Part shown: positions 38,159 through 52,108 of the stretch, piece after piece
Layout: each line of letters starts with the position of its first letter
Position numbering within the stretch: position 1 is the first letter of the stretch
DNA from: Lingula anatina
Lineage: Eukaryota; Animalia; Brachiopoda
Reading direction: 5' to 3'
Length of the DNA: 64,000 bases
NCBI GenBank assembly: GCA_051362555.1
Contig: CM120643.1
Coordinates: 14,730,644-14,794,643 of the forward strand
Notes under the pieces: generated by a model
What the model was told of the DNA's origin: nothing
What the model saw: the letters and a program-made list of their open reading frames with translations, nothing else
Databases searched by the model: none
Program-made: the position numbers and the translations under genes

Positions 38159-40844
38159 CTTTCCTAAAATTATAAGCCAAGGTTTTCTATCGAATAAATT
38201 TTTCTACAAACTAAGACTGTCTGAGAAGAGTTTAGAGTGGATTGCACTTAATGGGTGCTGACAAGATGTTCAATTAAAATGGTTTGGATGGTTGGGGGGG
38301 GGGGGGGTGAGGAATCTGCTCAAAATGGGCGTCCTTGTATGGCATCTTTATTTATCCCACTTTCAATAATTGCTAACCTCGCCCAAGTATCGATCTCAGT
38401 ATTTTATCAATTTATCACTCTGACATCGGTCATCAAGGTTTTCCTGCTCGAACAAGTAAGTGTGACACTCGCTCTCGCCACCAACACCAACCAATTATTG
38501 AACCGAGCAAATAATTTTTTCCTCTCCTTCCATATTAGCAACTATAAAAAACCTTGCTCTATCCCATTTTGTTTTTCATTCAGTTAAATGGTTTATGTTA
38601 TAGGCAGCATTATGCACTAAACTCCTTACTTTGATCAAGGGCCTGATAATTATTGCACGTCTCATCAGGTATACCACGCTTGTGTGCGTACTCGTACACC
38701 CCTATCATCCCTCCGCCATGACAGGTGCCCGAGTCGCCACAGTCCAAGACATCTTGTACAGAGAGGTAGGCAGAGGGCCAGGCGTTCCCTCGCTTTATGT
38801 TGATGCGATCCGCCAGGGCGCTGGTTGTTCCCATGGCCCAACATGAACCACAGTCTGTACAAGAACAAGAAAAAATTTTTTTTTACAAATTTCATCATTT
38901 TTGAAATCATCATTATTGCTGAAAGTGAAAATTGAATTCTTTTTGACTGCTTAACTTATAGGGAGTGTACAAGGAACCCCTCTTGCAGGAGATACAAAAG
39001 AAAAGAGCATGTTTGATTCCTAGAAGACATTCAGAACATATGATCCGTGGTCTAACTGAACCACCAACAAACTATGGCTGACCCCACATAAAAAGCCATG
39101 CTGCTATTTCCCTGTTGATCTCCCTGCCTCCACACATGCCATTTAACAAATTAAATCTCAGCTTCAAGGGTTCATTGCTGGGCCCCTGCAGCAACAGCAT
39201 GTGTGGAGCCAGGGAAACCATCAAGGAATTAGAGGCATTGCTTTTTATATGGGGTCCGCCATATTTAGTCAGTAGATCAGTAAGTCCGCGGATCATCTGT
39301 TCTGTATGCGCTCTTAGTATCTAAAATGAGTCTATGGGAAAATACCCATAGGACACATGCACTAGAATATTCATAATGCTGTATTATGGTTGTGTCAGAC
39401 CCCATTTCCAGAGATTAGATCGATCTACTTTAGATCGACCTAACTCCCTGGGGGTTCACTCTAAATAGCTGTCAGCCGGGCGGGTACGAAAGTTAATTAC
39501 CCTCTTACAGCTTGTAGTAGGCGGGACGGACATTTAAGCCGGATTATCTAACAGTAATCTAGTGAGACTCCCCGCAGGGATAGATCGATCTAAAAGCTCT
39601 GGGAATACAGCCTTATACTTACATTGAGGAATGTGTTGATTCCTTGTGACAGACACAAAGTTTGTATTGTTCACGTTTCTCCAATCCCACGCCTTGGGGA
39701 CAGCCTTAATGCTCATGTACTCATGAGGTCGAGGGTATGTCCTATGTAAATACTTCACAATGTTAAATCAAAACATCACTTGTAGCACAATCTATCAGTA
39801 AGCAGGATGGCAGGTAGAAAAGAGAAAATTGTTGTACTTGTAGGCTAATATCTAGAAATGATTGGAGGGAGAATAAGGCAACAGAAAATACAACACTAAA
39901 TCTCACTGGCCCTTTAACTTTTTTCAAGCACCTATAAATTGTAAACCTGGGTAGTTACATGTACAAAATCACAAGTACTACTAGTACACTATAATACCAT
40001 GTGAATTTACCATTTTATTGTTTACTTTCCTCATATGAATTAGCTAGGTCAACTGAGGGGTCACATAATTTCACTGAACTCCAATTTATGCAAAAAAATG
40101 CAAAATTTCAGCAAGAGGCACTCATTTCAAAACATAAAAAGGGTGCAATTTACAACTGGTCTGACTTTAACCAGCACTGGGACTGGGTGTAAGCTATGAA
40201 ATGATTAATTTCCCCCTGAAATTTGATTATTTTAATGTTCAAAATGCCATGTCATGATCATGATTACTGTAGATCAAACTTGTAAACAAAAAAGTACACC
40301 TTGAGCACAAAAACAACAGCGGAATATATTGTACAGAGAATAATTAAAGTCAATGCAGGATCTTGCATTACAGGAGTATCGTCTCTGACCATTTAATCAA
40401 ATATCAAATAAAATATAATATTAATGCATAAAACAAATTAATTAAAAAAATAAATACCAACTATGGACGTTTTATAAGATAGCATTACTAGACAGTAATG
40501 CAATCTAAGTTATATCGACCTAAATTTCGAAAGTAGTAGTACAATGTGACAGAAATCTTTAAAGCAGAAATCATAAAACTAGTGCTGATATTCAGTACAG
40601 AGTCAGATGCAGAGATACCGATCTATTTAACGAAATTAACGGCTCTTACTGTACATATCTTGAGCAATAAATCTTGATCTTAAAATGATCCTTCAAAAAG
40701 AAAATATACTAACCTGATAGTTTGCTTCCCGATGTCATAGTTCCTGTCATAGCACGCTTTATTATGCTTTAGATACTTCAGTTCAGATGAAATCCCAAAA
40801 CACATAAGAGACAAAAACGTCGCGAACAACAAGCCGTTCGCCAT
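36180..40844 (-). CDS. CTSZ: Cathepsin Z/X (papain-family carboxypeptidase), 7 exons, 299 aa
   Basis: Exons 40844-40714, 39741-39623, 38854-38630, 38037-37887, 37453-37378, 36822-36736, 36290-36180; all GT-AG and in frame (900 nt). Signal peptide [20 protein letters not shown], short Cys-containing propeptide, mini-loop RNQHIPQYCGSCW, catalytic His (VNHIV) and Asn (RNSWG), C-terminus [16 protein letters not shown]. Confidence 0.96.
36922..37106. mobile_element. MITE family A, diverged copy in a CTSZ intron
   Basis: GAGCACAATCAGAACAGC..AACAGATCCGTGGAT ... ATCCACGGTCCTGTT..GCTATTTTGAATGGGTC inverted ends, similar to 21549-21821. Confidence 0.55.
38096..38155. repeat. (CA)n microsatellite in a CTSZ intron
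   Basis: Read directly from sequence. Confidence 0.95.
39023..39313. mobile_element. MITE family A copy in CTSZ intron 2
   Basis: GAAGACATTCAGAACATATGATCCGTGG...AGTCCGCGGATCATCTGTTCTGTATGCGCTC; same termini as 21549-21821. Confidence 0.7.
39397..39613. mobile_element. MITE family B copy in CTSZ intron 2
   Basis: Closely similar to 21826-22025 (TAGATCGACCTAACTCCCTGGGGGTTCAC...TTACAGCTTGTAGTAGGCGGGA). Confidence 0.75.
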
Positions 40845-40873
40845 TTTGCTTAAAATTACACCTCCTCGTGACT

Positions 40874-40897
40874 GTCATGTGAGATGAGTCATGTGAC
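40874..40897. promoter_or_regulatory. Two M-box/CLEAR-like E-boxes upstream of CTSZ
   Basis: GTCATGTGA (40874-40882) and GTCATGTGAC (40888-40897), 30-53 bp from the start codon of a lysosomal protease, with an overlapping TGAGTCA. Confidence 0.65.
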
Positions 40898-41515
40898 CAG
40901 CAGGTGTTTGTTGCCTGTTGAACCTGCTATGTAATGCGCGGTATCAAGTAACTAACTCTGCCCCCTTTAGCGGCAGTTATGTAGTAAATTAAAACATTCA
41001 GATACAAATAGCTGGTGATTTGAATGTCTGTTTCTCCTCAAATAGCAACTTTTATAGTAAGCAATGGTCAATATTAAAACCTGCCATTTCAATATTTCAT
41101 TCTCTCCTAGCCTTTACTGTTAAATCGTTATTTTATAATTTCTTTTCTTTCTTAAGTCTACAAGTACTGGTTATTGTAGTTCTTCATCCCTGCCTTGTAA
41201 ATTTGGATCGCCACATATGATGTTACATATGATTGTAGCCGTATGCTTCCTGATTTGTGTTTATGATGAATTTGTAAACACACCAAGAAGTTTTATCTCA
41301 CCGCTTAGGCCTATCTTGAGTAGGCCTACTTTATAAGTAATTTCACTAGTAGGTCCTACTGTTCATTATATAGGCTAAAGATATATATTTGTTAAGTCAC
41401 AACATACTGGAAACAAAGATCAATAACAGAATGGTAATGCCTCAATCGTATTGTTTTTATTATACATGTATTTTATTGTACAAGGTTATGATAATGTACG
41501 TAGGCCTACCAGTAT

Positions 41516-42129
41516 CACCCTGAGCTTCAGAGCTAACTTGACACTAACCTTTTCACTGTAGCCTATCTCCATCGTGTCAAGTAACCTCTGACGAAAATAG
41601 TTTGACCTATTTTATATAAGCCAATCGAATCCATGTTTCAAAATTTTTCACCAAAGTTTGGTGAAAACGCTGATTGGTTGATCGTCAATCGGCAATCCTC
41701 GGCTGATTCCGCAAGCTCCATACTAACAACTTAGTTATTGTCGAGTGCGGAGACATCCGAGTAGTTCCGAGTGGTTCCGAGTGCATAACCGTACACAAAG
41801 AAAGCATGGAGTATATCGGAATTGAAACCAGAGCAGTATGATGCCCTGCATCATTATCTACTGAGGGATGATGTATTTTGCGTGCTGCCCACAGGTTACG
41901 GCAAGTCCCTGATATTCAGCCTTATCTTTGATTGGTCCGGATTTGAACAAAGCGCGCTTTGACTCGTTCGCGTTCATTGGCTAGATCGTTCAATGAGTCA
42001 TTGAGTGCGGGCTTTAAATTTGATTGGCGGGCGGCGGGGGCACTCGAATCTGGTCAGAGGTTACTTGACACGATGGAGATAGGCTACATTGAAAAGGTTA
42101 GTGTCAAGTTAGCTCTGAAGCTCAGGGTG
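41516..42129 (+). mobile_element. Non-autonomous DNA transposon (~77-bp TIRs, 8-bp TSD) with RecQ-like helicase fragment; Academ(H)-like by inference
   Basis: TIR CACCCTGAGCTTCAGAGCTAACTTGACACTAACC...AGTAACCTCTGAC and its reverse complement ending at 42129; TSD ACCAGTAT at 41508-41515 and 42130-42137; 41822-41920 reads LKPEQYDALHHYLLRDDVFCVLPTGYGKSLIFS. Confidence 0.85.
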
Positions 42130-42264
42130 ACCAGTATAGGCTACAGCAATAAATTGAACTGAATTGGGTTGAATTAAACCTAAGCCGTCCATTAAACTGA
42201 CAATTTGCAGGCCCGTAGCCAGCAATTTCCAAAGGGGGTTATTTTTCTAAAAAAAAAGTCTCTT

Positions 42265-42310
<46 letters not shown>

Positions 42311-42597
42311 ACGGCCCGTAAATAGCACCTATAGAGTAAGTCTGGTACCCTGAATGTCCATGTCAAATAATAGGTCTTTACCTATAGGACCCTTAATCTT
42401 TTTATAGATTTCATATCTTAATACGATTCCAACCCTTATGTTTTGTTATAAGTTTGTGAGCAAAATTCTCTGCTCGTTCATTTTTCATATCAGAGGGTAT
42501 TGGGACACTATGGCCATCGGTGGCAGTAGACCAAAGTGTCGGTAGTCTGTCTAAATGCGCACATGTCCAGATATGGATTTAAATTTATTATAGTCTT

Positions 42598-43130
42598 TCA
42601 CGGTGCCAGACGCTCCTTAAAGACTGTGGCGACCAGATAAACGCAAGCGATGCCCATTATTACTGGGCTGACGTAATGCAGCACTGGCCAACTAGCCTGT
42701 TGTTCGTTGTCTGAAAGAGCAGAAATGATATTTTATCGAAATAGGTGTGAGAGTGTGCTATCTATTTTATCCTTTAACATCTTTTCTTTAAATCCTCAAA
42801 ATTAATTTTATCAAAATTGATTACACATTTCTAAACATGTGTCTATCGATTTTTACACAGGGTGGCTCAAAAGAAATCCCATCAGTTCTAATGAGGCAGT
42901 CTGAGCTAGTATAAGGCCGCATTCACAATAAAAGTTGATCCGCGGACTAACAGATCTGCGGATAAAATAAGGCCGACCCACTTAAATTTTTTTCATAATT
43001 CCCGCGCGGAATCTATTTAGTGTCTAAAAGGGGATTATGCGGCAAGCTTTCGAGTTAGTCCGCGGATCAACTTGTTCTGAATGTTCTGAATTAAGTCATG
43101 GCCAAGACTTCACGTCATTAAAGTTTGAGC

Positions 43131-43165
<35 letters not shown>

Positions 43166-44666
43166 AGAAAAGAATAAAAGAGAAAGCACACACACCTGTC
43201 CACTGACTGTTGATAGAGTCAGGAGGTTCATAGCTACCTGTAAATAAAGGGAAAATGAAAGTTGAGTAAACCAAGGAATCTTATCACAACCTACCTTGAG
43301 TAAACAGGCATAAGTCTTAATTGTTAAACAAAAAAGGTCTTTAAATCCACATCACTGAAAATGATTCGCGATATATTCAGTACTGCGTTGCAGGCTTTTT
43401 TCCCAAGCTCTGAAAATTTTGTCAAAGTACGTACTGAATATACCATAAAAATATTTTCATTCTGAGTAAGTTTTTGCTATGTTAAAATCCAATATAAACA
43501 AACTTACTGTATTCAGTAGACTCGCATCCAATTTTACGGTGCGTGTCGCCAGAGGTCCTCGTGATGACCTGTTCCAGTTTTGTCAGCGCCTCTTCATCAT
43601 CCTGGCTATCAAAGCGCAGAATTCTGTGAAAATAAAAATTTAGCTATTTTGATTTCAGCAGTGTAATATGATCTTTTCATCAGTATAACTTAACAGGTCA
43701 ACATGTGTTAATTCGTAGCCTTATATCTCCAGAACCGGCACGGATGTCATAGATTGGACTTTTTAATGGAGCCTTAAATTAATATTTGACCTCTGACCTA
43801 CTCTCAACATTAAACTGATATTTCTCCACAACTGAAACAGATACATCCATAGCTAAAAAAAGTGAAAAACTTACACGTTAACTTATACTAGTTACTACAT
43901 ATATAAAAATAATCGAATATTTGAAACCGATAGTTTTTTAAAAGTAATATATTCAATTCATATCACCTTAAATCTTAATGCGTGTGTTCTATTTTCTAAA
44001 CATAAAAAATATAACTTTGGTCTTAATCCAGTGCTTCAATCTGCCTACTTATGTATTCTCAGCTCCTGCGGTACTGGGCACTTCACGACCGCTATTGGTA
44101 TCAATCTTCGTATGTTACCCGTGCCTTTCATATCTAAGAGGCTGGAGATACATTGTAGGCGGGACCAACGGGCCCATCCACTGTCATTGGAAGATGGATC
44201 GACAATGACAATGTTGTACCTGGTAAAAGGAATGATACTTATGTTAATATCTTCAATTTTGCGTTCAGTGATATTTCTTGTAGATTGATTAAGATCAAAA
44301 TGCACAGTAGGACGCAGCTGTTATTAATGTTGATAATCTAAGTTACAATAAAAGATGCTACGAATAAGTAGTGGAGTAAAGGCGCCTTTCACCAATCTGG
44401 TTTTATCACGAGGGTTTACCAAACGCTGCACAAAATTATATACAAACTTCTATTTTCACTTACATTGAATTGTCCACACCAAATATCCTCTCATCGGCGA
44501 TAGCATTGCCTGGCAAATTATTTCGCGGGTAGAAGAAACCTCGAAGCCCTCGTGCCTCGAGCTTTTCCATCACATTCCGCCCAAATACGAAAGATTCGTT
44601 ATTATCTTCATCGAAGATGATATTGAAGTCGTACGTCATTTGGGGTTCAAGCATGACACCAGACAT
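42598..44666 (-). CDS. Single TIR-domain protein with predicted C-terminal transmembrane tail anchor, 5 exons, 214 aa
   Basis: Exons 44666-44464, 44219-44049, 43623-43508, 43237-43196, 42710-42598; all GT-AG and in frame (645 nt). CAAAATG start with an upstream in-frame stop. TIR-like elements YDFNIIF, LEARGLRGFFYPRNNLPG, NSMYNIVIV, SGWARW, RLIPIAVVKCPVPQELR. Last exon WPVLHYVSPVIMGIACVYLVATVFKERLAP. The last two exons are less certain than the first three. Confidence 0.75.
42915..43083. mobile_element. MITE family A, internally deleted copy in the last intron of the TIR gene
   Basis: GGCCGCATTCACAATAAAAGTTGATCCGCGGACTAAC...GTTAGTCCGCGGATCAACTTGTTCTGAATG. Confidence 0.7.
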
Positions 44667-44819
44667 TTTGACAAAACGGCTGATCCGATGTCTTTCGCCG
44701 TCCCCAAATCAGAGTCAAATCAGACGCCCGCGCTTTCTATCTGCTATGACACTACATAACTCGATGGACAAATAAACATGGACTATTAGGTAAGCGTCTA
44801 CAAATAATTTCTGCGGTTT

Positions 44820-47167: not shown

Positions 47168-50100
47168 CTACTCATCGATGAATCTTGATTTCGATTGGAA
47201 CTAGAAAGAGACGTTATTATCATTATTTATTTATTTATTTATTAAATTTGTACAGCTCCGATAAAAATAATCTTTCACAAGAATCGAAAAAAGTATAAAT
47301 GAAGACCAAGCAATTGATGAAAAGATTTAAAAATAACTTTAAGTTATTTTAATACGTACATGTGTCTGAGCGTGTTTTGTGAAGTGGTCTTCGCATGCCA
47401 TCCTGATTCTCTCAGCCGTGGCTGGACTGTCCAAACGGAACCTCCCTTTCAAACCGGACTCGGCTCTAGCGGACGATATGGCGTCTTTGATGGCTAAGAA
47501 TACTGCAGACGCCAGTAGCAGAGGAGGTTCACCAATTCCCTGTAAAAATGAAAAATTTCGTAATCAAACGGTCTGATGACTTAAATAGGCCGATTTTTCG
47601 ATTACACTTGCATTTTTACCAAACAAAACCTTCCTGCAAATTTTAAAGTAGTAGTGCTAGCTTGCAGCCAATGGCGACGATCATTTCGACGGCGATGAAG
47701 TCGACACAGTACACAGAAAATAATAATAATAATTCTTATTCTAATTATTATTATTATTCACATTTGTTTTCGGCAATGTTACTGTCATTGAATTTCCTTG
47801 TCACTTTATACTGGTGTGTTGTCACCTTAGAAGAGTAAACAGCTCTTGGATTGGACGCCCCTTTCAGGAAGGACACATTGAATTCTACAGGGATATCTGC
47901 GTAGCCTGGGATCTTGTACGTGTTTGGACCGGTGGTTACCATTTTTCCATCAGAAGTGTATCTTAATTGTTCAATGGTATATAGCCCATAACCCTTAAAT
48001 AAGATATATATATCAGCTGGAAAATCGGTATTTAACGCTCATTTGGAATTTGACATAAAGAATTTCAATTTGGAAGATATATTTATCTTTTCGGGCACAC
48101 TGAATGGTTAAAGTGCTTGTTGTCACTATACCTGTGCAAAAGCGCCCTCTATCTGTCCAATATCAATGGCCGGATTCAGGCTTCTTCCAACATCCATTAC
48201 AATGTCGGTTCGTAACACCTTAGGAATAGATTCGAATATAAAGAACTACATGTAGTATTTATGGTATTGAAAACAAAGAAGTGGCGACACTTTAACTTAA
48301 TTTTCTATGAACAGTTTTATCATTCTAGCGTGTCGACATTTTAAAGCCAAAGATATATCAAATTATCGTAATGTAAACTGTTTGAATTTGAGATGGGTGA
48401 AAGGCAACTAACCACGTGGTCTCCTGTAAGACAATCTATTTCCACCACGGAGCAAGCAGCGCCGTACGTATGGTACGCTTCTTTTGCTATCTCACCCTTT
48501 ATATAACTGTCATCCCATGTGTCTGGTACTCTACATGTTATTAGAAAGGAATAGTTTACAATGATTTAAATAAAGAACCCGAGAAGGCAGAGGACAGCGA
48601 GAACCAAAAATATAGAGAGCAAAATTAGCCATGTGAACTTTATTTCTCGTTTTGAATATATTAAATAACTTTGTCAATCATCTTTTATGTCTAAAATTAT
48701 AGTTTTTTCGTTTTAAAACGTTATTACCGATGCCAAAGAATGAAATTTCAAATGCATGCCTTAAGCAAAAACTCTTCCTGTAAAGTATGGACTTGCATTT
48801 AATCCAACGAGCTCCGTCTAAGCAAAAACTAGATAAGGTATACAGAAACAATATCTGATTGACTTTATGTAGGCGATTTTTCATGGTTCCCATTATTTCT
48901 ATGAGTTATAATCACTAAACTGAATATTCTTTGTTTATATATCCATTTAAATACAGTACTGGTTTCTTTACTTGTAGAATCCAGTCGCCGATAGGCTGAT
49001 CCTGTCCATGTAGGCAGCTTTCACCTAAGACAGAATTGGAAGCCATATTGTTTAAAAACACGGTTGAAGACAACACAGCATTACTGATAAGGAAATAAAT
49101 ATTAGTTTCGTTTCTAATCCATAGAAAAATAGTTTTCTGTCCTTATGGCATTTGAAAGTTTTGATATAGAAACTTTTTTTTTTAAATGTTTGAGTTTTTT
49201 ATTTCTCTTTCATTGTTTGTCTGAATAGCTTACCCAATCCTCCCACGTGCCACTTGGCTTTTCAGTGACATATGGAGCCAGTCGTTCTTTTAGTGCTTTG
49301 CAGGCGTTCTGGAGATATGAAGAGGGCATATTAATAGGATAAATCCAGAAATGTTTGTTTTTTTTTTCATTCCAATAGGTTAATCAACACGATAAATCGA
49401 AAAGGTACGAAAATAATTGCTATCAATTTCAAGCTGAAAGTACTTTCGCATAACCAGCTGCCTAGCTTTCAGCTGCATTCTCCGTTGCAAATATTTCAAC
49501 TTCAACGGCGCCATGATTCAACTTACCAATACCGCCATTCCAAAGTAATCAGTGCTTGTACTGGAATTTGTGGCAGTGGCATTGGGCACCGTATCGGTAG
49601 ATGTCTCGTTGATATGGATTTTCCGAACTGGGATCTGTAATGCTCGGCTGGCAATCTGGCAAAAAACAAATTCTTTAATATGTAATTATCTTACGGCTGA
49701 TAAGGAGCGTCAGTTTACTTTTTTGCCCTGCGTCCATCTCCTATTACACGAAGAAATATAGCAGTACAAAATTTAACTGTAATTATACAAAAAAAGGGTT
49801 AAAACACGCATCGTCCTTATTATAAATAGTGAAGCTAAAACTAACTGCTTTATAGTTGAACATTGTCGTAGTGAGTATGTTCAGCTATTACCTCAATGTC
49901 CATTCTTTTTCACGGATTTTCACGGATTTTATCCATTTTCATTGAGTGTATTTTCTAAAATTTTGGATCTATATTAGTAATTTTTCATTAAAACCAATAC
50001 AGAATATTATGAAGTGAACGGACAGATTGGATGAAGTTTTCATGTAAATTATCACACTACCTGTATCAACTTAGTGTGCAATCCTTGTCCCATCTCTACA

Positions 50101-51842
50101 CCACCATGTGTTATCAGAACTGAACCGTCCTCTTGGTACACATGAACAAGTGCAGCCCCCTATCGGTAAAAATGGTGATGATTATAATTATACGACATAG
50201 ATATAATTGACGCAATGTTTTAATTGAAAAGTACCGCCTAATTGTTTATTAAACATGTATCTCGCTCTTTTAAAAAGACAGTTTTATCTTAACAGAATCA
50301 TCATCAGCAACTTGTTATAATTATGATAAGCCACCCACTTCTACAAATATAAGTACACTGTACTTACGTTCTGTAGATGACGATTAGGATAGTTAGTAAT
50401 CGGATATTTGGCAGGAACCAAGGCGATGCCACGCTTCTTCCAACGGTTTTTGCTAAAACAGATTTGGTGCTTGTAATTAATCGTGATGTTTCATTAGATT
50501 TGTAACAACGATACAATGTGTATATTTAGAGTATAAGCTATATCGGGACAAGAACGGTTGTCCTAGATGTAGCTGCTCGACACGAACATCCAAACTTACA
50601 CGCAGACAAACACATGCCTACTGCTTTGTCTTTCTTAGTGGGCAGCCGAGAAAAAAAATTTCCAATAATTTGTTGACAGTAAAATGACCACAAGTGTTAC
50701 GTGAAACTGTAGATGCGAATATTCTCACTACCTGAAGTTATGTAGTCAATATATCCTTTGTTTGACATCCGAATTATAAATTTAGTCACGTTATATTATG
50801 TTATGTTATGCTCAGTAGGGACCGACATGTGAAGTTATCCAATGCCACCTTTAAAAACCGTGATTCATACAAGGGGATAACAAACGGTCAGAGGTAACTT
50901 TTCGGACTTTTAGCAATACAAATGGCCCCAGTTTACAATAACGTCGAATTCGTCACTGAAGCGTGCAATCTTTTCAATTTAACTTGGCCCTGGTCGGAGT
51001 TTGAACGGTGATCGTTGCTGTCACGCCATTCAATGTTTTTACTAACTTTAAGAAACTAGTATTTAGTGTTTGGATATTAATGGGTTGCAAACTAACATAG
51101 GCAAGTACCTTAGTACTTTATCTTAATTTCATATCACCTGTTAAACGCTTCTACTTCTTTTTTACTCGTATGAAATCCATTTTGTTTGATAACCTCAGTC
51201 CAGCAACGTCCTATGTTACAGTTCACCAGGCGATTGCCATTGGGTGTTAGATCATTTTCCTTGTACATATTCACTTCTCTGACCTAAACAATATGGGAAT
51301 GGTACTTAATATTAGTATATTAGGCCTATTCGTTTGAATAATTACGTTTTCACATTTACTGGCAGATTTGGAGAATATAACATGATACCCGTTACCATAA
51401 TTTATGAATTTATTAAAGGCCAGGCGCTAATACTGGATCGTGGACAAAATTGGTTTTATGACAAAAACAAAGGTTAAGTAAGAAAGTCAAATTATGATCC
51501 TTCGGTGATTTCAAAGTAAAGGCACAAACACAATTTAATACATAGTGCGTTTTTCGAGGTTTTTCTTGAACGTACCGTACGTGGTGGGATCTTTAGTTGA
51601 ACAGCGATATCTTCGATTATGTTCTCCATAACCAAAACTGACTGAGGGCTACCAAATCCCCTGAACGCCGTGTTTGAGCGGAGGTTGGTCTTGCACAAGA
51701 CGCCAGTCAGCAGTAGATTTGGAATAAGGTAACAGCTGTCAAATCTGTCTAACGCCTCGCCTAGAACCTGATGAATAAAACACTTTATATGGGGCCTAAT
51801 AGATGAATGAGCGATATGATAACTCACACACGCACACGCACG

Positions 51843-51873
<31 letters not shown>

Positions 51874-52108
51874 ACATTTCAATGTTTCTGCCCCGATTAT
51901 ACAATAAAACACGAGGTATTCTTTAAACTATACCTACGTATGGGGATAAATCGCACACATTGCCAGCGTTTAAATATAGCGTGGCTTCTAGGGCTAGTAA
52001 ACGTCCCCTGCTGTCCACTCCAACCTAAAACAAACATTAATTTCCATTTCTGTTATTATAGTATATATTATAGTAAATTAATGCAACTATTCAAAAAAAA
52101 AAAAAATA

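Follow-up and report, generated by a model that had tools for sequence, protein, structure and literature searches.

Adaptor proteins built around a TIR domain are the closest described counterparts of the protein presented here. In MAL/TIRAP and TRAM (TICAM2) the TIR is the sole folded domain, its alphaC helix lacks the glutamate residue (WCKYQ in MAL, WCNFQ in TRAM), its BB loop carries a proline, and a membrane-targeting element is present without any effector domain. These anchors are N-terminal and peripheral, and act by phosphoinositide binding or myristate (PMC6901815). The same source describes the sorting adaptors TIRAP, TRAM and dMyD88 as using lipid binding or myristate, and MAVS and STING as transmembrane proteins of other pathways. 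Aplysia has yielded no orthologue of either MAL or TRAM (PMC9334734).

Other arrangements of an interaction domain and a membrane helix are also known. MAVS (CARD-Pro-TM in vertebrates, CARD-Death-TM in oyster) consists of an N-terminal interaction domain, a disordered linker, a C-terminal helix and a short tail. In TLR, IL-1R and TRR proteins a TM helix or ectodomain stands before the TIR, and in TRR-type TM-TIR proteins the helix precedes the TIR in a type I topology. Two amphioxus TIR proteins, bbtTIRB and bbtTIRD, are reportedly endosomal (work of Peng in 2015), and surveys by Gerdol from 2017 and 2018 are said to cover metazoan and Lingula immune/TIR proteins. Hydra TRR-2 and other TM-TIR proteins combine a TIR with a single membrane helix and no LRRs (PMC6321704).

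Mollusc orphan TIRs, amphioxus bbtTIRA-D and ecTIR-DC are invertebrate TIR-only or oddly fused proteins, for which roles as adaptors and inhibitors have been proposed or demonstrated (PMC6043800, PMC6321704). Greenlip abalone has 21 orphan TIR proteins, oyster has 57 (PMC11103948) and Aplysia has 17 (PMC9334734); ecTIR-DC families are widespread in invertebrates (PMC6321704). The abalone classes include "TIR and TM domains" and "TIR flanked with TM domains", which PMC11103948 lists without giving the order of the domains.

The gene described below (the TIR gene) lies within a 64-kb stretch of the genome of the brachiopod Lingula anatina (the window, to which all coordinates refer). It was initially annotated as encoding a TIR-only protein that ends in a tail anchor and is a candidate organelle-tethered immune adaptor. 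Like MAL and TRAM, to which it gives strong profile and fold matches, the protein has a TIR as its sole folded domain, a Glu-less alphaC and the BB-loop proline; however, in place of an N-terminal peripheral anchor it has a predicted C-terminal TM helix. The basic cluster and Gly2 are absent: about 10 residues precede the TIR, and there is no myristoylation site since residue 2 is Ser. On the best reading, which compares features only and does not claim orthology, the protein would work most like MAL or TRAM without their anchor features.

The protein has neither the TM helix nor the ectodomain that precedes the TIR in TLR, IL-1R and TRR proteins, its order of parts is the reverse of that of the Hydra TRR-2 type, and it lacks the death domain of MyD88, the rest of the molecule being a low-confidence linker and one helix. 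In contrast to MAVS, with which it has no homology, its interaction domain is a TIR and not a CARD, its acidic linker is short and without TRAF or pLxIS motifs, and the charge of its tail is only +1. Oyster TIR-STING (6wt6/6wt7) provides the closest solved TIR by both Foldseek and VIA-align, but the identity is only 18-23%, and the L. anatina protein has no STING domain and ends at residue 214 in a hydrophobic helix.

Gene structure and transcription

The coding sequence is composed of five exons on the minus strand, separated by four introns that all have GT-AG borders (phases 2, 2, 1 and 1), and totals 645 nt, equivalent to the 214-aa spliced ORF that had been proposed. The features of the gene are as follows:

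44464..44666, minus strand: coding exon 1, residues 1-68, with the start codon, TIR betaA-alphaB and BB loop P52-G53; reads in X8
44049..44219, minus strand: coding exon 2, residues 68-125, with betaC, alphaC (W83, and Ser87 at the catalytic-Glu position) and betaD; reads in X8
43508..43623, minus strand: coding exon 3, residues 125-164, with betaE, alphaE and the start of the linker; reads in X7 and X8
43196..43237, minus strand: coding exon 4 (42 nt), residues 164-178, acidic Ser/Pro linker, predicted disordered; bin depth zero in X7 and X8
42598..42710, minus strand: coding exon 5, residues 178-214, with the predicted TM helix (187/190-208), a 6-residue tail of net charge +1 and the stop codon; reads in X8
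42584..42589, minus strand: putative poly(A) signal AATAAA, eight bases past the stop codon, with a presumed function in polyadenylation

The product is letter-for-letter identical to the L. anatina RefSeq protein XP_013387071.1 (LOC106156392), matched through a search with exon 1 (P0001). Since the RefSeq model is computed, it represents a second prediction and not an experiment. It uses the same ATG, upstream of which lie two in-frame stops (44717-44715 and 44711-44709). Between these stops and the ATG, AG dinucleotides occur only at 44691 and 44679, with 9 and 6 pyrimidines of 20, respectively, compared to 13-17 of 20 in the four real acceptors of the gene. The better acceptor site at 44759 precedes the in-frame stops and could therefore add untranslated sequence only. 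Over the 2.4 kb that separate the TIR gene from its upstream neighbour, whose putative last exon has its acceptor at 47200, the longest open stretch is 69 codons. Taken together, the stops, the poor acceptors and the short open stretches do not fit a receptor ectodomain upstream, in agreement with the initial view that a conventional receptor N-terminus is missing.

At the other end of the gene, four acceptors with at least 14 pyrimidines are present after the exon-4 donor and before 40900, and only that at 42710 yields more than 10 residues. Retention of intron 4 as the source of an alternative hydrophobic end was considered and rejected: the hydrophobic run would derive from a CT microsatellite and is without support.

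RNA evidence was drawn from four of nine runs chosen by the same species label, with 6-26% of each run used. In X8, the bins that contain exons 1, 2, 3 and 5 had a depth of 0.3-2.6, and the purely intronic bins 43277-43483 and 43691-43897 a depth of zero. X7 gave some depth on exons 2 and 3, and the other two of the four runs, X1 and X4, gave zero depth on the exons of the TIR gene. Exon 5 is therefore transcribed, at a low level. In none of the four runs did a splice joint of the gene gather the 3 reads required for listing. Exon 5, on whose splicing-in the initial annotation depends, is backed by the X8 reads, the choice of acceptor and the AATAAA, whereas the 43196/42710 joint itself, at a depth below 1 and with a threshold of 3 reads, is unlisted in all four runs.

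Three X8 reads on exon 5 carry differences at 42619 and 42625, one silent and one Phe->Leu, with hydrophobicity retained. Five of the eight coding differences listed from RNA change a residue. X8 also shows four differences within 13 bases (44504-44516; 3/3 reads), all of them in the BB loop: L51M, a silent change at G53, N54S and A55S. They leave P52-G53 intact and form a clustered change at the TIR binding surface, which may stem from allelic variation, from a different population or from a closely related paralogue.

No second TIR gene or paralogue was found within the 64-kb window. The upstream neighbour on the minus strand is a gene for a molybdopterin-binding enzyme (MoCoBD_2, 26.6 bits, slightly below the cut-off of 27), which we take to be xanthine dehydrogenase-like or of the aldehyde oxidase type. 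Its 3' exons are located at 47339-52000 and beyond, also on the minus strand, and its putative last exon starts at 47200 and, in phase 0, reaches a stop after 10 codons. Downstream, the minus strand encodes a papain-family cysteine protease (Peptidase_C1; 5' exons at 38610-40874), presumably cathepsin Z-like. The region between the TIR gene and the protease gene (41414-42241) is heavily transcribed and variable, with many loose read ends and a depth of up to ~350 in X4; it is probably a repeat or transposon fragment that collects reads from other copies.

TIR domain and its relatives

A Pfam search with the whole protein gave a match to TIR_2 of 31.1 bits (cut-off 28; residues 30-141). TIR families were the only ones matched, with no death domain, CARD or STING family, and the whole protein was required, single exons giving no TIR match. 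The AlphaFold2 model (12-row alignment; mean pLDDT 61.9) contains a five-strand TIR core extending to about residue 150, a low-confidence part (residues 149-192) and a helix (193-211); the TIR begins near residue 11. Foldseek placed the TIR of oyster TIR-STING first (E 1.7e-07), with a MAL filament at E 3.6e-06. VIA-align also ranked oyster TIR-STING first (Z 15.0, rmsd 2.7, 133 residues aligned), Hydra TRR-2 (Z 13.9) and two MAL entries (13.8 and 13.7) following about 1 unit behind. The top 10 VIA-align rows were all TIR domains (Z 12.4-15.0), and the predicted model has the flavodoxin-like TIR fold.

Sequence-based searches gave a different order. In a single-sequence search of the PDB the best match was Hydra TRR-2 (E 1.1e-04), followed by TLR1, oyster TIR-STING and MAL (E 1e-04 to 1e-02). 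A family profile made of the protein and 11 relatives matched chicken TLR15 best, followed by entries of MAL/TIRAP (E 1e-13), with TIR-STING ranking below TLR15, MAL and TLR2. In the ESM Atlas the structure rows were TIR, and the feature matches, all below 0.9, serve as leads only.

The BB loop retains P52-G53. W83 aligns with the tryptophan of TLR1 WCHYE, which puts Ser87 at the position of the catalytic Glu (W+4), and no WxxxE motif occurs within the TIR. The retained PG of the BB loop and the replaced Glu, as well as an N-terminal TIR without a death domain, had all been read from the letters beforehand and proved correct. The alphaC Glu is essential for TIR activity, and its loss abolishes activity in the tested TIRs (bioRxiv 10.64898/2026.04.20.719644). 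Since Ser87 replaces this essential residue, NADase activity of the protein is very unlikely. According to the same preprint, most non-receptor animal TIRs retain the catalytic Glu, and a Lingula TLR TIR produces cADPR.

An exhaustive search returned 17 proteins at E <=0.001, including the query, with 26-35% identity that extends in nearly all cases over the TIR alone. A profile search of 1496 candidates gave 5 matches and added P0024 and P0025. The query was the only protein recovered among 42 candidates of a word-index homolog search and forms a single-member sequence cluster; pattern matches in viral contigs (112) and metagenome contigs (447) yielded no confirmed relatives. In a tree of 19 TIR stretches, from which 9 near-duplicates or non-TIR rows were left out and which contained no MAL or TRAM sequences, the query is sister to 10 Glu-less proteins (support 94/88, below the starred level) on a long branch of 1.26. 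Glu at W+4 is present in none of the 13 relatives in its group, and the group profile aligns with MAL WCKYQ. A TIR as divergent as this (26-35% identity, branch 1.26) is also expected of a decaying or lineage-limited gene.

The only named relative is Haliotis asinina XP_067657652.1 (P0009). Judging by their lengths and sources, most of the others look like single-exon or read-through gene calls that end soon after the TIR, and since most look truncated, their C-termini say little. A 19-residue KD of at least 2.0 in the last 60 residues was reached by 0/13 relatives, the best values being 1.67 (P0018, whose hydrophobic end is probably intron read-through) and 1.60 (P0009). No hydrophobic tail was found in P0025 (521 aa). 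In P0009 the parts follow one another as in the query; its linker is acidic, and a hydrophobic run of 15 residues (KD 2.16), shorter and weaker than that of the query, lies 11 residues before its end. Conservation of the anchor is suggested by this one protein. The search for homologs of the same architecture, proposed in the initial annotation, thus led to one similar layout with a weaker tail and to no relative with an equally strong one.

Two other arrangements were observed among the retrieved proteins. P0023, a 289-aa CARD_2 + TIR protein, retains WxxxE (seen in cluster member P0012) and is, from its sequence, a candidate CARD-triggered enzymatic TIR. In P0015 and P0017, which are bacterial-like in the tree, the TIR is followed by a strong hydrophobic helix at about residues 166-171 and then by another domain; the helix in this TIR-then-TM order is internal and does not form a tail.

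C-terminal tail and predicted location

The strongest hydrophobic segment of the protein comprises residues 190-208 (19-residue KD 2.03) and is followed by a 6-residue tail of net charge +1, much as the initial annotation had described it (about 20 residues and a short tail). The eight best 19-residue hydropathy windows all begin at residues 185-194, and thus there is no N-terminal hydrophobic segment, consistent, as far as hydropathy goes, with the claimed absence of a signal peptide. GRAVY is 1.97 for residues 187-208 and 2.21 for residues 191-208, the helical moment is 0.39 (not amphipathic), and the first third of the segment contains His, Ser and Pro. Judged by hydropathy alone, the protein resembles tail-anchored proteins, with one C-terminal hydrophobic helix, a short tail and no N-terminal helix.

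Of the 886 open stretches of at least 36 aa in the window, 48 close with a segment as hydrophobic as this one, a chance rate of 5.4% at which hydropathy is weak by itself; the case for the tail therefore rests also on the evidence for exon 5, i.e. the sole acceptor giving more than 10 residues, the AATAAA at 42589 and the X8 reads. The preceding linker (38 residues, net charge -5) is acidic and Ser/Pro-containing, as had been stated, and is predicted to be disordered. A pattern scan found no TRAF2/3/6, RHIM or pLxIS pattern in it, and a search of the ESM Atlas with linker and tail gave no usable match.

Among mammalian tail-anchored proteins, those of peroxisomes have a mean tail charge of 6.03, shared ones 2.5, mitochondrial ones 1.12 and those of the ER 0.21; a low tail charge combined with a hydrophobic helix favours the ER (PMC5450235). 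By analogy, applying mammalian rules to a brachiopod protein, the ER/endomembrane system is somewhat more likely as the predicted location than the outer mitochondrial membrane. A peroxisomal location appears unlikely, because the tail charge is +1 against the peroxisomal mean of 6.03 (PMC5450235). Among the organelles named initially, the ER and mitochondria thus agree with the chemistry of the tail and peroxisomes do not.

Proposed role and alternatives

The explanation towards which we lean, with slightly better than even confidence, is that the protein acts as a non-catalytic, MAL/TRAM-like sorting adaptor or decoy, fixed to a membrane by its predicted TM tail and binding other TIR proteins; we infer its localisation, its partners and the direction of its effect. 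A Glu-less TIR with a BB loop and a membrane anchor, and with no effector domain, could do little except bind TIRs at that membrane. The protein would be inserted post-translationally with its TIR facing the cytosol, where this domain may assemble, in a manner that depends on the BB loop, with the TIRs of TLR, MyD88-like or other partners. In an activating version, assembly would be seeded at one membrane, as is done by MAL/TIRAP and TRAM with their lipid anchors. In a damping version, partners would be sequestered at the membrane and NF-kB signalling reduced, as in the case of amphioxus TIRA and TIRC, which damp TICAM and MyD88 signalling (PMC6043800); oyster TIR-only MyD88-like genes have likewise been proposed as competitors (PMC4346834). 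With no death domain, CARD, RHIM or TRAF motif, the protein would not signal alone.

The single-member cluster, a tail without detectable relatives, its 5.4% chance rate, the low expression and the proportion of listed RNA coding differences that alter a residue (5/8) would also suit a lineage-limited orphan TIR whose tail is a recently recruited exon with no conserved role, the soluble TIR being the working form or the gene having little function. This appears rather unlikely, given a frame intact across five exons with canonical splice sites, exon-5 differences that are silent or Phe->Leu (two sites only), a poly(A) signal after exon 5 and the similar layout of P0009. It is most improbable that the model is incomplete and represents the end of a longer receptor, or that the TIR has enzymatic activity through a residue other than the standard Glu. 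The 5' end is predicted and AGs exist at 44691 and 44679 between the upstream stops and the ATG, but their pyrimidine counts (9 and 6 of 20) fall well short of the 13-17 of real acceptors, the longest upstream open stretch has 69 codons and RefSeq starts at the same ATG; a hidden enzyme is opposed by the missing alphaC Glu, whose loss abolishes activity (bioRxiv 10.64898/2026.04.20.719644).

The initial annotation inferred a MAVS-like topology, and a true MAVS analogue would be a mitochondrial tail-anchored platform that forms polymers by its TIR once a cytosolic sensor has bound it, and that itself drives antiviral signalling. The topology is the same, the tail charge of +1 matches the mean for mammalian mitochondrial proteins (1.12; PMC5450235), filaments of MAL-like TIRs are known from PDB titles, and some molluscs are without a recognisable MAVS (PMC11103948, PMC9334734). 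We nevertheless regard such a role as distinctly unlikely: a CARD is absent, as are TRAF2/3/6, RHIM and pLxIS motifs from the 38-residue linker, a GRAVY of ~2.0, together with the low charge of the tail, points rather to the ER (PMC5450235), and a CARD-Death-TM MAVS exists in oyster and scallop (PMC11103948). The likeness to MAVS therefore extends to topology and no further. A catalytically dead partner that co-assembles with soluble TIR-STING or a cADPR-making TLR TIR, providing it with a dock at the membrane or capping its filament, is highly unlikely, even though the oyster TIR-STING TIR is the best fold match in both Foldseek and VIA-align, oyster TIR-STING types have a TIR in place of TM domains (PMC11103948) and are suggested to deplete NAD+, and a Lingula TLR TIR makes cADPR (both bioRxiv 10.64898/2026.04.20.719644). 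The Z lead over Hydra TRR-2 and MAL is only ~1, the sequence profile puts TIR-STING below TLR15, MAL and TLR2, and there is no linked STING gene in the part of the window examined.

The gene is real and low-expressed, and its architecture is unusual but confined to a single gene. No TIR-only protein that ends in a tail anchor is described in the full-text literature searched, which covers few subscription journals, and earlier TIR surveys or their supplements may list the locus; PMC2575513, PMC8195603 and PMC4346834 yielded nothing with a TIR followed by a terminal helix. To speak of an undescribed system, as was done initially, was an overstatement for a single gene with no partner found and 0/13 relatives with an equal tail, orphan TIRs being common in lophotrochozoans. 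There is a slim chance that lophotrochozoans possess a family of catalytically dead TIR adaptors with tail anchors, of which this protein is the first to be recognised; such adaptors would designate an organelle as a site of signalling and either offer soluble TIR-STING or enzymatic TIRs the membrane dock missing from them, or replace MAVS.

Three points limit the weight of the membrane-fixed adaptor reading: no partner was found, conservation of the tail is suggested by one protein, and the animal is not an easy one for experiments. TIR sorting adaptors set where innate signalling starts; the known ones are peripheral and lipid-based, and the transmembrane MAVS and STING use other domains (PMC6901815). 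A tail-anchored TIR would unite both designs and, if true, would constitute a third means of positioning a sorting adaptor of the TIR kind, alongside lipid binding and myristoylation. It could thereby reveal how TIRs are positioned in animals without MAL, TRAM or a clear MAVS.
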